Source of the DNA: Rhodocyclales bacterium
Lineage (GTDB): Bacteria > Pseudomonadota > Gammaproteobacteria > Burkholderiales > Rhodocyclaceae
Length of the DNA: 64,000 nucleotides
Assembly (NCBI GenBank): GCA_043743785.1
Contig: JAYTVW010000161.1
Coordinates: forward strand, 35,063-99,062
Direction of reading: 5' to 3'
Positions within the stretch are counted from its first letter, which is position 1. Every line of letters begins with the position of its first letter. The notes beneath the pieces are model-generated. The model had not been told where the DNA came from, made no database searches, and saw nothing but the letters and a program-made list of their open reading frames with translations. Positions 2,839 to 33,220 of the stretch are shown here, piece after piece. Made by a program: the position numbers and the translations under genes.

Positions 2839-3756
2839 TCAGCTTGTGGCGAGAAATTCCGCCGTTCGTTTCTCGATAGAAGCTCTGTCCAGGCCGTGTT
2901 CGCTGAGCAAATAGTCGTATGTTCCGCAATGCTGCGAAAATCTATCTCGGACGCCTAATCTCAAAATTCGTACGGGAGCGCGTTCCGATGCTATTTCGGC
3001 GATGGCAGCGCCCAATCCCCCCAGAACAGAATGTTCTTCGAGAACAATGAGCGCCCGGCTTTGTTTGCATATATCTTCCACCTGGCGGGCATTGATTGGC
3101 TTGATGCAAGGGACACTCCACACGGCCGCGTCGGGATACGCGGCTTTCGCGACATCTACGGCCGTACGTACCATGGATCCGGTGGCGAGAAAGGCGATGT
3201 CTCCTGCCCTGCCCGGCCTGACCTCCAGCAAGCGCCCAGCCTCCGGACTTGGCAAAGCGGCATGAACGTCACCCCGGTCGGATTTCCCCATCCGAAAATA
3301 GACGGCACCTTGTGCCTGGTATGCCATTTCCATGCACGCGGCCACCTCAAAATGGTCTGCAGGAGAATAGATGGATAAATTCGGTATCGCTCTGGTGCAG
3401 GCGATATCTTCCGTGGATTGATGACTGGTACCGAGGTGGCTGTAGACAAATCCGGCACCATCGCCGATGAACACAACCGGGAGCTTGTCGTGTGCGACAT
3501 CCAGTTTTATCTGCTCGATGACTCGTACCGGAATGAATGCACTCAATCCATATACAAAAGGCCGGAAGCCCAGCCTCGCAAGACCCGCAGCCATGCCGAC
3601 CATGTTCTGTTCCGCAATTCCGGCATTTATGTATTGCCGAGGGCACTCCTTGCGGAATTCATCGAATAGCGCATAGCCATGGTCCCCGGTCAGAAGCAGC
3701 ACATTGGGGTCGGCCTGGGCAAGTCGAACCAGAGCACTCGAGAAGGCATCTCTCAT
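2839..3756 (-). CDS. transketolase, C-terminal (pyrimidine-binding) subunit
   Basis: 305 aa. GIAEQNMVGMAAGLA motif and overall resemblance to the C-terminal half of transketolase. Overlaps the upstream N-terminal subunit gene by 4 nt. Confidence 0.85.
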   Translation of the reverse strand: MRDAFSSALVRLAQADPNVLLLTGDHGYALFDEFRKECPRQYINAGIAEQNMVGMAAGLARLGFRPFVYGLSAFIPVRVIEQIKLDVAHDKLPVVFIGDGAGFVYSHLGTSHQSTEDIACTRAIPNLSIYSPADHFEVAACMEMAYQAQGAVYFRMGKSDRGDVHAALPSPEAGRLLEVRPGRAGDIAFLATGSMVRTAVDVAKAAYPDAAVWSVPCIKPINARQVEDICKQSRALIVLEEHSVLGGLGAAIAEIASERAPVRILRLGVRDRFSQHCGTYDYLLSEHGLDRASIEKRTAEFLATS

Positions 3757-4585: not shown

Positions 4586-5902
4586 CTAAAAGTTCACACC
4601 CAAAAATTCCTCGATCTTGCTAACCGAGAATTCCATCATCTCCTCGGTCAGGGCCGGTTGCACGCCGATCCAGAAAGTGTTGTTCATGACGATGTCGGTA
4701 TTGGTCAATTCGCCGCTCACCCGGAACCCCCGGCCGATCATGTACGGCTGACGCGTCAAATTTCCGGCGAACAACAATCGCGTGCCAATCTTGTTCTGGT
4801 CCAGGTACTGCAGCAGATCCACCCGCGTAACCGGTGCGTCATCGCGCAGGGTAATGGGGAAACCGAACCAGGACGGCTCCGAATTTTCCGTGGCTTCCGG
4901 CAGGATGAGGAACTCCTCGCAGGACTTGAGGCGCGCCTTCAGAAATGCAAAGTTGTCCTTGCGCTGTTGGATGAAAGCCGGGGCCTTCTCCAATTGCGCC
5001 AGGCCACAGGCTGCCTGCATGTCACTGATCTTGAGGTTATATCCCAGGTGGCTGTAGGTGTACTTGTGGTCATAACCCTGAGGCAACTCCCCCAGTTTCT
5101 GGCAGAAGCGCTTGCCGCAGGTGTTGTCCTTGCCCGGTGGGCAATAGCAGTCGCGGCCCCAGTCCCGAAAGCTTTCGGCAATCTGCCTGAGTTTGGCGTT
5201 ATTGGTGAACACGGCGCCGCCCTCTCCCATGGTGATGTGGTGGGCCGGGTAGAAACTCAGGGTTCCGATGTCGCCAAAGCTGCCCACCATCCTGCCGCCG
5301 TAGGTGGAGCCGAGAGCATCACAACAATCCTCGATCAACCACAGATTGTGCTTCCGGCACAGGGCGACGATGGTGTCCAGATTGTAAGGATTGCCCAGGG
5401 TGTGGGCCAGCATGATGGCCTTGGTCTTGGGACTGATCGCCGCCTCGAGCTTGCTGGCATCGATGTTATAGGTGCCCAGTTCCACGTCCACGAACACGGG
5501 TACGGCGCCGAACTGCAGGATCGGATTGACCGTGGTGGGGAAACCGGCGGCCACGCCAATGACTTCGTCGCCCGGCTTGATGGCCCGCTCGCCCAGTTTG
5601 TGGGATGTCAGCGCGGAGAAGGCCAGCAGATTGGCGGATGAGCCGGAATTCACCGTCATCAGGTGCTTTACGCCGAGGAACGCCGCCAGGCGTTTTTCAA
5701 ACTCGTCGTTGAAACGCCCGGTGGTCAGCCATCCGTCAAGGGAAGCCTCCACCATGTTCTTGAGTTCGCTGGCGCCAATCACCTTGCCGGAGGGCGGCAC
5801 CACGGAAACACCCGGGGTGAAAGCCTTGGGGGCAAAAGCGAGTGCTGCATATTCATCGACCAGTGCGGCGATCTGCAGGCGGAGTTGTTCAGTTTTTTCC
5901 AT
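4586..5902 (-). CDS. rfbH: CDP-6-deoxy-L-threo-D-glycero-4-hexulose 3-dehydrase (E1, RfbH/DdhC)
   Basis: ATG 5902 ([10 protein letters not shown]) preferred over the upstream in-frame ATG at 5959. DegT fold with [14 protein letters not shown] (His where aminotransferases carry the Schiff-base Lys). Carries the Fe-S motif [11 protein letters not shown]. Confidence 0.9.
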
Positions 5903-29669: not shown

Positions 29670-29699
29670 TTGGCATCACCTTTCCCAAAGAATGCCGTC

Positions 29700-29960
29700 A
29701 TGAGCCAGGTCGCCAAATTATTCACCAATGGCCGCAGCCAGGCGGTGCGCCTGCCGGCCGCCTATCGTTTTGACACCACGGAAGTTTTCATCCGCCAGGA
29801 TCCGGCAACCGGCGACGTGATCCTGTCGCGCAAACCAGACAACTGGGATGGGTTCTTCGCCAACCTGAAGACGGCCGGGATACCAGCGGATTTCCTGGAT
29901 GAAAAAGAACGCCAACAAGACAGCAAGGAGCGGGATCCTTTCGAAGGCTGCGGCGAATGA
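29700..29960 (+). CDS. vapB: type II antitoxin VapB (AbrB/SpoVT-like)
   Basis: MSQVAKLFTNGRSQAVRLPAAYRF looped-hinge-helix N-terminus. ATGA overlap with the downstream PIN gene. Confidence 0.8.
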   Translation: MSQVAKLFTNGRSQAVRLPAAYRFDTTEVFIRQDPATGDVILSRKPDNWDGFFANLKTAGIPADFLDEKERQQDSKERDPFEGCGE

Positions 29961-30355
29961 AACCCATCCTGCTGGACACTAACACCGTCAGCCATCTGCT
30001 CAAGGGCCATCCGGCTGTCGCCCAGCACGTGCAGGCCGCCCCCATGGCGGCCCTGTGCATTTCCGCCGTCACCGAAGGCGAACTGCGCTTCGGCCTCGCC
30101 AAACGCCCGGAGGCGAAACGCCTGCATCTCGCCGTGGCGGAGTTCCTCCGCCGTGTGGACGTCCTGCCCTGGAGCAGCGACGTGGCCCAGACCTACGGCC
30201 CCCTGCGCGCCGACCTGTCCCGCCACGGCAAGACCCTCACCCCACTTGATCTCCTCATCGCCGCCCACGCCCTCTCAGTCGGTGCCACCCTCGTCACCAA
30301 CGACCAGGCCTTCCGGCAAGTTAATGGACTACAGGTTGAGGATTGGACGGCGTGA
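29957..30355 (+). CDS. vapC: type II toxin VapC (PIN-domain ribonuclease)
   Basis: 132 aa. MKPILLDTNTVSHLL ... ISAVTEGEL ... DLLIAAHA ... LVTND acidic PIN signature. Confidence 0.88.
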   Translation: MKPILLDTNTVSHLLKGHPAVAQHVQAAPMAALCISAVTEGELRFGLAKRPEAKRLHLAVAEFLRRVDVLPWSSDVAQTYGPLRADLSRHGKTLTPLDLLIAAHALSVGATLVTNDQAFRQVNGLQVEDWTA

Positions 30356-30360
30356 ACCGC

Positions 30361-30450
30361 GTAGGGCGTCAATAAGCGCAGCGCATTGCGCCGATTTCCC
30401 CGGGTGCGGGCCGCCCAGCGGCGCAATGCCCTTCGGTTATTGCGCCCTAC
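30361..30450. repeat. GTAG-type REP pair, family 3 (GTAGGGCGCAATAAG...)
   Basis: GTAGGGCGTCAATAAGCGCAGCGCATTGCGCCG ... GGCGCAATGCCCTTCGGTTATTGCGCCCTAC. Lies between the convergent vapC and hicB genes. Confidence 0.8.
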
Positions 30451-30453
30451 CCA

Positions 30454-30843
30454 CTACCCTCGCAAGGCCAAGTGCGCGATATAGCCTGAACGGGATTCAT
30501 TGGCCGCCTTGGCGGCGGCATCGATGCGGCGCAGGACCCGGGCCGGCAGGGTGATGTTCACCCGCTCGGCCTTGTCCGAGAGTTGCGCCAGATCCACTTC
30601 CACCACGGCCCACACCCAGCCGGCGAATTCCGCATTGGCCTGATGTTCGGCCAGGGTGCCGGCCTCCGGCACCGGGCCGCCATCATCAATGACCGTTTCC
30701 AGCCACAACTCAATGGACTCCCGGGCATTGTCCAGCGCCTCGTCGAGCGTATCGCCCGCCGAAAAGCACCCCGGCAGGTCCGGCACCGCCACCCCCCAGG
30801 CCTGTTGTGCGTTGCCCGGCTCAAGCGCAATCGGATACCTCAT
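30454..30843 (-). CDS. hicB: type II antitoxin HicB
   Basis: YPIALEPGNAQQAWGVAVPDLPGCFSAGDTLDEAL RNase-H-like N-domain plus a C-terminal RHH (RVNITLPARVLRRID). Downstream of hicA. Confidence 0.85.
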   Translation of the reverse strand: MRYPIALEPGNAQQAWGVAVPDLPGCFSAGDTLDEALDNARESIELWLETVIDDGGPVPEAGTLAEHQANAEFAGWVWAVVEVDLAQLSDKAERVNITLPARVLRRIDAAAKAANESRSGYIAHLALRG

Positions 30844-30856
30844 GACCGCCTTCCTT

Positions 30857-31039
30857 TCATTTCAAACCGGCCTGTTTCAGAAGCTTGTGCACCAGGCCAA
30901 CGCCCATGTCCTTCTTCGGATGGGGCACGCTGATGTGGCCGCCGTGCGCTGGGTGCGTGTAGATGTGATGCGGCCCCTTCACACCCCGCAGCACCCACCC
31001 CGCCTGCTCAAGCCTTCTGATCAAGTCCGCGCTGTTCAT
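30857..31039 (-). CDS. hicA: type II toxin HicA (mRNA interferase)
   Basis: MNSADLIRRLEQAGWVLRGVKGPHHIYTHP...ISVPHPKKDMGVGLVHKLLKQAGL from ATG 31039. Confidence 0.85.
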   Translation of the reverse strand: MNSADLIRRLEQAGWVLRGVKGPHHIYTHPAHGGHISVPHPKKDMGVGLVHKLLKQAGLK

Positions 31040-31257
31040 GGGCGGACTATACACACCTTACACACGAATTTGAGCAAGTTGCCGTGATAACTCGTCTTGG
31101 CGACCGGCCACGCCTATCCACAGGTTTATGCGACAGCGCAGCACAACGCCCACCTCTTCGCCCAACGCGGTATGATTACAACATTTTGCAAAACAATAGT
31201 CCAGAACAGTCCAGATTAGACAACTGTTAACACTTGAAAAAGAAAGCTAGGCGAAAT

Positions 31258-32925
31258 ATGTCTGCGACTCAAATAACTTTATACCCTGCAATAAGGACCA
31301 AGCAACCCCACATTAAGCGCCCAAGTGAAGCCATTTCGGAAAGAAAATCTAAAGAACTTGTAATTGCATTTGCTGGACCTATTGGCTGTGGCATTAAAGC
31401 AGTCAAAGAGCGCTTAATTGAACAACTGAAGGCGTCTGGTTACTCAGTTAAGGAAATAAAGATAAGTGAATATTTGGAAGAGTGCGTCATCCAAGGGCTT
31501 ATCCCCAACACGGAAGCTATCAAACAAACCAACAAGGCTGACAGATATATTCAATTGCAAGATGCCGGCAACTCCTTAAGAATATCTCAAAGTGACATTC
31601 TTGCAGAGTATGCAATAAAGAGAATCGCGGAGACAAGAACAAAAGAAATAAAAGACGAAACAGAAAGCGTGACGGATTACATCCCCATTCGCACCGCCTA
31701 TATAATTGACCAATTAAAACATCAAGACGAGGTAAGTTTACTTAGGGCTGTATATGGAAATCTATTTTATCTTTTCGGTGTATTAAGCACATCTACTCGC
31801 CGCTCTACTCGTCTAAAGACTGACGGCATCCCACCGGACAGAATCCCTGAATTGGTTGAACGCGATCGAAAACAACGGGAAAAAAATGGTCAGCAGTTGG
31901 ACAAAGCTTTACAGTTGGCGGATTTTTTTATCCGCAATGACCATGCGAATGCAGAAGCAATTGAAAACCAGATTATTCGGTCGGTACACTTGATCCACGG
32001 AGCAAATGGCATTTCCCCAACAAAGGAGGAGTACGGAATGTATTCCGCCTACGCATCAGGCTTGCGTTCTGCTTGTTTATCTAGGCAAGTAGGAGCATCT
32101 ATCATGAACAACGACGGTATAATCATAGCTACAGGGCGAAATGACGTACCAAAAGGCGGAGGTGGTTTATATGGCCCAGAAGACGGCATAGGCGATGCTC
32201 GCTGTGTCAAACTGGAGAATGCTCAATGCCACAATGATTTCCACAAACAAAAACTAGTCAACAACATAGAAGAAATAATAAGAACCACGCTAAACAGTGC
32301 CATCACAGACATCTGTGGGAATGCTACGGAAGATCAGAAGGCTTTCCTTCAACAAATACATATTGATGAATTATCTAATAAAATCGCTTGCTCTGCGTAT
32401 GATGACACTCGCCTTGGCGGACTTATAGAGTTTTCCAGGTCAATTCATGCAGAGATGGATGCAATTGTCTCCCTCGCATCAAAGGGAGGAGGCGGCACGA
32501 AAGGTACTACGCTCTTTACCTACACATTTCCTTGCCATAACTGCGCCAGACATATTGTTGCAGCAGGAATTAGACAAGTCTATTACTTAGAACCATATGA
32601 AAAAAGTCTAGCCGTTGAGTTACACGGAGATGCAATCAATGTAGATGGCCAACGAGGGGGCTTGGGCGATGAACTTGAATCGAGAGAACAGGTGGAGTTT
32701 TTACACTTTGAAGGCGTTGCGCCAAGGCAATACCTCAACATGTTTACTCCATCAGGAGAGCGGAAAGACGGTAACGGCAAGGCAGTGAAGACCAATGTTC
32801 GCACCGCAGAGAAGAAAATTCCCGAGTACCTCGACGACTACAGAGAGTATGAGCTAAAAGTCGTCGCTCACTTGTTGAATGTAATCAACGAGTTAAAAGA
32901 AAAGGGGTTGCCGAAAAAAGGCTAG
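31258..32925 (+). CDS. avcD: P-loop nucleotide-kinase-like / deoxycytidylate-deaminase fusion protein (AvcD / dCTP-deaminase defence family-like)
   Basis: N-terminal IAFAGPIGCGIK P-loop. C-terminal zinc deaminase motifs ACLSRQVGA, HAE (32446-32454) and PCHNC (32530-32544), separated by a long insert. AT-rich relative to the flanks. ATG 31258 preferred to TTG 31234. Confidence 0.8.
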   Translation: MSATQITLYPAIRTKQPHIKRPSEAISERKSKELVIAFAGPIGCGIKAVKERLIEQLKASGYSVKEIKISEYLEECVIQGLIPNTEAIKQTNKADRYIQLQDAGNSLRISQSDILAEYAIKRIAETRTKEIKDETESVTDYIPIRTAYIIDQLKHQDEVSLLRAVYGNLFYLFGVLSTSTRRSTRLKTDGIPPDRIPELVERDRKQREKNGQQLDKALQLADFFIRNDHANAEAIENQIIRSVHLIHGANGISPTKEEYGMYSAYASGLRSACLSRQVGASIMNNDGIIIATGRNDVPKGGGGLYGPEDGIGDARCVKLENAQCHNDFHKQKLVNNIEEIIRTTLNSAITDICGNATEDQKAFLQQIHIDELSNKIACSAYDDTRLGGLIEFSRSIHAEMDAIVSLASKGGGGTKGTTLFTYTFPCHNCARHIVAAGIRQVYYLEPYEKSLAVELHGDAINVDGQRGGLGDELESREQVEFLHFEGVAPRQYLNMFTPSGERKDGNGKAVKTNVRTAEKKIPEYLDDYREYELKVVAHLLNVINELKEKGLPKKG

Positions 32926-32958
32926 TCCGCTACAGTTCGGCCCAAGGAGGATTTTAGA

Positions 32959-33165
32959 ATGTCACGGAAAAACGAGCGCAAAGACCGCCAACTGCCACTG
33001 GATTTTGAAGCCGTAAGCGCCCCCACGCCTGCAGTGTGCTTAGAACAGAAGGAATCATCGGTGGTTTGTTTCGCCTCTTACGTTCGCTCTAAATTGCCTC
33101 CTTCATCCAGCCGTGACCCTGTTTTGGATCGCCTGCTTCGTGAAGCAACACGACTAAGTTGGTAA
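32959..33165 (+). CDS. hypothetical small protein (68 aa), co-oriented with the deaminase gene
   Basis: AAGGAGG (32944-32950) 8 nt upstream of the ATG. Starts 33 nt after the deaminase stop. Followed by a hairpin terminator. No family recognised. Confidence 0.5.
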   Translation: MSRKNERKDRQLPLDFEAVSAPTPAVCLEQKESSVVCFASYVRSKLPPSSSRDPVLDRLLREATRLSW

Positions 33166-33190
33166 GAGCTGAGGCTCGTTGATCGTACGA

Positions 33191-33220
33191 AAAAGGCCAG
33201 CGGTGTTGGCCTTTTCCTTT
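33191..33220 (+). terminator. rho-independent terminator (bidirectional-looking) after the small ORF
   Basis: AAAAGGCCA-GCGGTGT-TGGCCTTTT stem-loop followed by a T-rich run. The A-tract on the other side would serve the convergent U32 gene. Confidence 0.75.

Follow-up and report, generated by a model that had tools for sequence, protein, structure and literature searches.

A conserved small gene strictly linked to AvcD-type anti-phage deaminases appears to evolve as a protein and is best read as an avcI equivalent

Introduction

Catalogues list anti-phage dCTP deaminases in two forms, as a single gene (DCD; Tal et al. 2022; PADLOC 'dCTPase', NF041025) or as a pair in which the deaminase is accompanied by an RNA antidote (AvcID), and the way in which such an enzyme is silenced and then released is only partly understood. 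AvcID, or DcdV-DifV, has been described in V. cholerae VSP-1, V. parahaemolyticus, Proteus mirabilis and plasmid p58 of ETEC H10407 (Severin/Hsueh et al., bioRxiv 10.1101/2021.03.31.437871; Hsueh et al. 2023, PMC10511110). AvcI was published as a non-coding RNA, the type III-like antitoxin of the pair, and restrains AvcD post-translationally (bioRxiv 10.1101/2021.03.31.437871). According to the same preprint, the inhibitor locus is a 174-nt ORF within "ig222", located 5' of dcdV on the same strand, and the ORFs of the inhibitor loci show no similarity to one another. [quoted passage not shown] Moreover, the AvcI RNA was reported to be labile, and AvcD is activated by rifampicin and not by spectinomycin. 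These published results favour an RNA over a labile protein in the V. cholerae system.

A full-text literature search returned no paper on a protein partner of AvcD-type deaminases. Here we describe a deaminase locus of this type in a Rhodocyclales bacterium, within a stretch of 64,000 nucleotides that was analysed as a whole and that we call the window. In this window, a first-pass annotation had pointed to a small ORF directly downstream of the deaminase gene as a candidate protein partner. We examined its relatives, its mode of evolution and its relation to avcI.

Results

The deaminase gene and the small gene that follows it

The two genes and their accompanying signals are laid out in the window as follows.

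31258 to 32925, plus strand: gene of an AvcD-type anti-phage dCTP/dCMP deaminase of 555 aa (PADLOC, NCBIfam, Pfam, AF2)
32908 to 32936, plus strand: promoter-like site with a -35 element TTGCCG (32908-32913), a 17-nt spacer and a -10 element TACAGT (32931-32936); putative function, from conservation
32944 to 32950, plus strand: Shine-Dalgarno sequence AAGGAGG, 8 nt from the ATG, with a GGAG-type sequence at the same position in homologous loci
32959 to 33165, plus strand: small partner gene, 68 aa and TAA, best read as of avcI-family type (adjacency, dN/dS, pS, no consensus RNA structure)
33190 to 33215, plus strand: hairpin AAAAAGGCCAG-CGG-TGTTGGCCTTTT with a predicted 11-pair stem, with an A-tract and a T-tract reaching 33220

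The deaminase consists of an N-terminal P-loop-kinase-like domain and a zinc deaminase domain in which the zinc and catalytic residues are intact (H397-A-E399 and P425-C-x-x-C429). It matches the PADLOC model PDLC02373 dCTPase (E 3.5e-168), reaches 467 bits with NCBIfam NF041025 antiphage_deaminase, the cut-off of which is 400, and contains the Pfam domain dCMP_cyt_deam_1. Its AF2 model has a pLDDT above 90 across most of the chain, and the two halves of the model resemble dCMP deaminases and adenylate-kinase-like proteins. A sequence search of the PDB with this protein returned dCMP deaminases only, over the deaminase domain, and no full-length AvcD-type chain.

Read directly from the sequence, the small ORF of 68 codons runs from the ATG at 32959 to the TAA at 33163-33165, 33 nt after the deaminase stop codon (TAG, 32923-32925). 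The Shine-Dalgarno sequence, the start codon, the gap and the shared strand were thus correctly described in the first-pass annotation. The strong hairpin terminator that it also described fared less uniformly: the 11-pair stem folds, and canonical terminators are found at the equivalent place in two homologous loci (L002 and L003), but the consensus terminator scan made no call for the hairpin of the window, because its T-run lies mostly within the stem. This hairpin may mark the end of a two-gene module, and, as it faces a convergent U32-peptidase gene, it may terminate transcription in both directions.

The deaminase gene and the small ORF form an AT-richer insert (GC 0.38-0.51, against about 0.65), flanked by hicAB and vapBC on one side and by the convergent U32-peptidase gene on the other. 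With predicted promoters and a terminator of its own, the whole module fits compactly into about 2 kb. The vapBC pair of the window encodes a MazE-like antitoxin (29670-29960) and a PIN toxin (29957-30355), and the hicAB pair lies on the minus strand (HicB 30454-30843, HicA 30857-31054). Together (29670-31054) they abut the deaminase insert in what is a small toxin-antitoxin and defence islet.

A promoter-like site precedes the small gene

The pattern TTGnnn-17-TAnnnT was found 47-54 nt upstream of the small-ORF start in 13 of 16 loci in which this ORF lies downstream of the deaminase gene, for a chance expectation of 0.0125 per 80 nt, and a promoter scan calls the site in L001. In the window, the spacer of the site holds the deaminase stop codon; in L002 the stop overlaps the -35 element, and elsewhere it is placed differently again. 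The conservation of the site is therefore no by-product of coding. It suggests that transcripts reach the small gene by two routes, from this site and by read-through from the deaminase gene, and hence that the gene is more than the distal gene of one transcript. Such separate transcription would fit the 20-60-fold excess of difV over dcdV RNA in V. cholerae.

The small gene is strictly linked to the deaminase gene

We then asked whether the small ORF has relatives and where they lie. A word-based search gave three homologues with 63-67% identity, all on metagenome contigs and each located 33-35 nt past a deaminase gene of 555-557 aa; the surroundings were other than those of the window, for example 3' of a type I restriction R subunit. 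The ORF was also present at the same place in all seven close relatives of the deaminase taken from GTDB genomes (Burkholderiales, Proteobacteria and Pseudomonadota MAGs; Nitrotoga, Aromatoleum, Gallionella, Nitrosomonas), and a GGAG-type ribosome site and a separate start codon accompany each of these seven copies. When 1.84 billion representatives were searched with a profile, the family grew to 42 cluster representatives at E<=1e-3, 41 of which are proteins of 58-87 aa, the remaining one being a 484-aa repeat protein. Five distant matches were checked, including the weakest ones (P0044 and P0041, besides P0026, P0037 and P0042), and each adjoins a deaminase of 518-551 aa. The same adjacency was observed in Cupriavidus, in L056 and in L045, the deaminase of which is 58% identical to that of the window.

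In all loci examined, about 30, the relatives of the small ORF directly adjoin an AvcD-type deaminase gene on the same strand. Most lie 3' of it and some lie 5', which is the position of avcI; the swapped order occurs in three lineages (L027, L028/29 and Pseudoxanthomonas L044). The surroundings otherwise vary and include type I restriction-modification, McrBC and toxin-antitoxin genes, and the linkage holds across more than 50% sequence divergence. Adjacency that is kept despite a swap of the gene order argues for a functional pair. The small ORF is thus a real and conserved gene strictly linked to the deaminase gene: the check for homologues and co-occurrence that the first-pass annotation had proposed gave relatives beside AvcD-type deaminases, and the conservation on which its proposal depended is seen in the 42 profile matches and in the Shine-Dalgarno sequence and start codon kept by every close relative. 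The linkage is one-sided: we sampled 400 genomes from the class and 400 from the order, and the majority of the other AvcD-type loci had no recognisable family member.

We considered a read-through product or fusion of the two ORFs and set it aside: the frame relation is not kept, and every copy has its own Shine-Dalgarno sequence and start codon. The two ORFs share a reading frame in seven of 13 loci (L001, L002, L003, L006, L012, L016 and the window), and in the window the in-frame gap runs from the TAG through 11 sense codons (32923-32961). In the other six loci they are out of frame, and programmed read-through is therefore unlikely.

Several further observations were made in the course of these searches. 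The 484-aa match, P0024, is a tandem-repeat protein: it contains a unit of about 52 residues (..RRKDRQLQLRFRTIQRR..) eight times over, the repeats match positions 7-41 of the family profile, and the whole may be no more than repeated DNA spuriously translated. In Flagellimonas flava (L008, 4514-4702), a 62-aa ORF lies directly 3' of a deaminase 37% identical to that of the window; it has the three-block layout QIRIEF ... RVISL ... IISKIIQNSHSF-stop, with an E value of only 0.48 for the family HMM, and may represent a Bacteroidota branch of the family. Another conserved small ORF (MSTRRTSMREVIATTS...GSWVTK...) follows distant deaminases in Conexibacter (L009, about 4647-4817) and Tepidisphaeraceae (L010, about 3465-3638); it is unrelated to the family of the window and may be another type of partner. 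Finally, the best-scoring AvcD relative in a genome of the same order (L055) is followed at about 3268-3450 by an unrelated 60-aa ORF (MAKPAEINWDDQIKQAQDEIKSWSKS...) and has no family member.

The small gene evolves as a protein-coding gene

The dN/dS ratio of the small ORF was 0.16-0.39 in the ten pairs for which dS could be estimated. Differences concentrate at third codon positions, alignment gaps are whole codons, and leucine codons alternate between CTN and TTG. In unsaturated pairs, pS values of the small ORF and of the deaminase gene were 0.17 against 0.20, 0.51 against 0.50 and 0.61 against 0.50. The small ORF thus matches the deaminase gene in synonymous change, and no extra constraint at the nucleotide level is visible. 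RNAalifold found no conserved pair in the small-gene family, the single-sequence fold of the small gene was no better than that of shuffled sequences (z=+0.51), and the Rfam search gave only a sub-threshold snoRNA match; on these grounds a structured RNA element was dropped as the main reading. As judged from these substitution patterns, the small gene evolves as a protein and the peptide is under selection, with which an added role of the RNA is compatible.

Features of the peptide

No model of Pfam, PADLOC, NCBIfam or PHROGs matches the small protein, as the first-pass annotation had anticipated in calling the product unrecognised, and the family profile A1, searched against PDB sequences, reached an E of only about 0.5. 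A DNA-binding domain (RHH, HTH, AbrB or Phd) was looked for with Pfam, NCBIfam and PADLOC, and none was found; the AF2 model has no folded domain. Three blocks stand out in the alignments.

32989 to 33006, plus strand: Q11-L-P-L-D-F16, in the block [DE]RQ[LM]xLDF of residues 9-16 (alignments A1 and A6)
33058 to 33072, plus strand: S34-V-V-C-F38, in the block (N/S)VVxF (alignments)
33121 to 33162, plus strand: V55-W68 (VLDRLLREATRLSW), a predicted amphipathic C-terminal helix ending in a Trp that is followed by the stop (alignments, AF2)

In the first block, Q11 is invariant in 51 sequences, and the family keeps Q11-LPLDF-16 in the form Q[LM]x[LF]x[FL], within a segment of low pLDDT; its likeness to clamp-binding motifs is a pattern match only. 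The C-terminal block has the consensus VLxRLLxEAxxLxW-stop, with R58, L60, A63 and W68 invariant or nearly so. The amphipathic C-terminus seen in the first reading of the sequence is therefore a conserved feature of the family, modelled by AF2 as a helix over residues 54-66. The basic N-terminus and the two cysteines (C27 and C37) that were noted with it are present in the product but unconserved in the family alignment, and we rejected them as functional features.

Modelled alone by AF2, the small protein is mostly disordered, with helices at 38-45 and 54-66 and a pTM of 0.25. We also modelled a fusion built as the natural read-through product, with the TAG read as Gly, seven paired rows and about 100 deaminase rows. 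The C-terminal helix had a pLDDT of 85 in the fusion, against 74-78 alone with the same seven rows. The helix is nearly as confident alone, and the pLDDT of the fusion is therefore no real evidence of docking. The N-terminal 40 residues of the small protein remained below 50 in the fusion, with 31-34 for the QLPLDF block.

Relation to the ORFs at the avcI position

We collected AvcD loci of plasmids and of E. coli by similarity of the deaminase only. In E. coli, Klebsiella, Photobacterium and V. coralliilyticus, the ORF on the 5' side of the deaminase gene ends in A-x-x-[IL]-x-W-stop, with the following C-termini.

E. coli IncI1 plasmid: ...KVIAASKKITW
Klebsiella ColE1-type plasmid: ...RKIIEDSKSLKW
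Photobacterium: ...NLLKAAQKIRW
V. coralliilyticus: ...NLKIAASKLDW
E. coli C10 ICE: ...IIDELVERAESIIW

Among the 862 ORFs of 40-100 aa in all loci and the 64-kb window, the ending [AS]xx[ILVM]xW-stop was found in 34; every one of these 34 is an ORF adjacent to AvcD, and the ending occurs in none of the 828 other small ORFs. The HMM of the window family matches the Photobacterium ORF (E 0.005), and hhalign aligned the last 18 columns of the two groups up to the end (P=4.3e-4). The probe primers for V. parahaemolyticus avcI (S3 Table, PMC10511110) delimit a sequence that starts with ATG GTT ACA (MVTNLN) and ends with CAG AAA ATT CGT TGG TAA, and this end, QKIRW-stop, is that of the Photobacterium ORF (MVTYLN...AAQKIRW). 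On plasmid p58 of ETEC, an annotated ORF of 61 aa has a central GNVVDF block at the same position and a different C-terminal end, and in the ORF at the avcI position of the E. coli chromosome NVISF aligns to the VVxF block. The homology of the window family to the ORFs at the avcI position extends over about 18 C-terminal residues only. Given this common C-terminal signature, the ORF of the window is best read as an avcI-equivalent gene placed 3' of the deaminase gene.

No AvcD was found on the chromosome of ETEC H10407, the system of which is carried by plasmid p58. Two of the loci are on small plasmids of 4.6 kb (Klebsiella ColE1-type, L049) and 5.8 kb (ETEC p58, L054) made up largely of replication or mobilisation genes and of the ORF-deaminase pair; in Klebsiella pneumoniae, the ColE1-type module was found in 25 plasmid records. 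As for difV itself, the 174-nt ORF is the minimal active form, and activity was lost on trimming 18 nt from the 5' end or 4 nt from the 3' end (bioRxiv 10.1101/2021.03.31.437871). Should the difV ORF end as its relatives do, losing those 4 nt would take away the stop and spoil the final codon, a point of interest given the conserved C-terminal Trp.

Discussion

The module of the window is close to AvcID in several respects. Both have a two-domain deaminase, that of the window being above the NF041025 equivalog cut-off, with a partner locus of 55-75 codons directly beside it on the same strand, and both lie among toxin-antitoxin and defence genes. The C-terminal A-x-x-[IL]-x-W-stop is shared with the avcI ORF of the V. 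parahaemolyticus type, and the VVxF block with the ORF of ETEC p58. However, the partner of AvcID lies 5' of avcD in the same operon, whereas that of the window lies 3' and has its own promoter-like site. AvcI was published as a non-coding RNA, whereas the partner of the window appears to evolve as a protein with no detectable constraint at the RNA level. Its N-terminal RQLxLDF is a further difference, being missing from the enteric and Vibrio ORFs. The deaminase of the window is likewise a full-score member of the DCD family, but DCD is catalogued as one gene and the unit described here has a second conserved gene. What would be new with respect to the literature is an AvcID-type module in which the partner is located 3', has a promoter-like site that may promote it separately, and appears to be protein-coding.

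Small antitoxins can be disordered and fold upon binding. PaaA2 of the ParE2-PaaA2 system is such a protein, a small disordered type II antitoxin without a DNA-binding domain. The product of the small gene resembles it in length (about 60-70 aa), in being predicted as a largely disordered chain whose short helices would form upon binding the toxin, and in being encoded next to the toxin gene. In contrast to these general likenesses, the two proteins have no sequence or profile similarity, and a toxin-first gene order would be unusual.

We asked what the small gene could do for the deaminase. We propose, as a reading to which we give about an even chance, that the small protein is a brake or regulator of the enzyme. 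A largely disordered protein of about 65 aa would be the partner of the AvcD-type deaminase; its amphipathic C-terminal helix, ending in Trp, would dock on the deaminase and hold it inactive, the peptide acting alone or together with its own mRNA. [quoted passage not shown] A promoter of its own at the end of the deaminase gene and a strong ribosome-binding site would keep the partner in excess. Upon phage-induced shut-off of host gene expression, the partner, being short-lived, would decay, and the stable deaminase, once freed, would destroy dCTP and dCMP and starve phage DNA synthesis. We looked for decoy copies of the small gene carried by phages, by tblastn against a phage collection and by a pattern scan of IMG/VR, and found none. 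This absence counts against the brake, as do the shortness of the homology to the ORFs at the avcI position and the many AvcD-type genes with no recognisable family member.

A brake of this kind could also be the RNA. In such a scenario, it is the small-gene transcript that would bind the deaminase to inhibit it and that would decay after transcription shut-off, while the peptide would serve another purpose, for instance stabilising the complex or tuning expression. The V. cholerae difV that inhibits with neither start codon nor ribosome-binding site speaks for an RNA, as do the lability of AvcI RNA and the activation of AvcD by rifampicin and not by spectinomycin. Moreover, the family of the window shares its signature with the ORFs at the avcI position, and a dedicated promoter would yield an abundant transcript as seen for avcI. 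However, in the family of the window there is no conserved RNA structure and synonymous change is not depressed; the strong conservation of the peptide, while its leucine codons change between CTN and TTG, calls for a protein function, and the conserved Shine-Dalgarno sites are unexplained by an action of the RNA only. We consider an RNA antidote, or a dual role of RNA and peptide, less probable here than a protein brake, yet a serious rival to it. An adaptor or sensor function appears more doubtful. It would have RQLxLDF bind a third party while the C-terminal helix holds the deaminase, so that the peptide would direct the enzyme or set it off, either in place of inhibiting it or in addition. 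Candidates for the third party are a phage protein and, going by motif resemblance, the beta sliding clamp. QLPLDF matches the clamp-binding pattern QLxLx[LF] and, like 6-QLSLPL-11 of Hda (PMC5397184), is found close to the N-terminus, in the first 16 residues; Q11 is invariant in the 51 sequences, and the block is undocked on the deaminase in the AF2 fusion, which is compatible with an outside partner. Against this, the likeness is one of motif only: no more than a six-residue pattern is shared, and the remainder of the protein is unrelated to Hda. The enteric and Vibrio ORFs at the avcI position also lack RQLxLDF, which therefore cannot be the core function of the family. That the ORF is a hitch-hiker, non-functional or unrelated in function to the deaminase, is highly improbable. 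The absence of any match to a known domain would agree with it, but the linkage is strict across more than 50% divergence and in differing contexts, the adjacency survives a swap of the gene order, dN/dS is well below 1, and the Shine-Dalgarno sequence, promoter-like site and terminator are all conserved.

Returning to the small protein as a brake or regulator, the idea of a protein partner put forward in the first-pass annotation is retained in part. The gene behaves as a protein-coding one, linked to the deaminase gene and under purifying selection, but it is no alternative to AvcI, as it shares a C-terminal signature with the ORFs at the avcI position. A more general reading, which we put forward only tentatively, is that avcI would be translated into a small protein throughout the AvcD family, whether it lies 5' or 3' of the deaminase gene, and that its peptide would be the brake or an essential part of it. 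The core would then be a VVxF strand and the helix ending in Trp, to which the clade of the window would add a clamp-binding-like QLxLDF through which enzyme release could be linked to replisome state during phage infection.

Altogether, a whole clade of anti-phage deaminases has a conserved small-protein gene as its second component, and this gene is tied to avcI as published. Should the peptide prove to be the brake or a part of it, annotation pipelines should call a two-gene system, and the type III classification of AvcID would need revisiting. The respective roles of peptide and RNA would then be open to simple tests.
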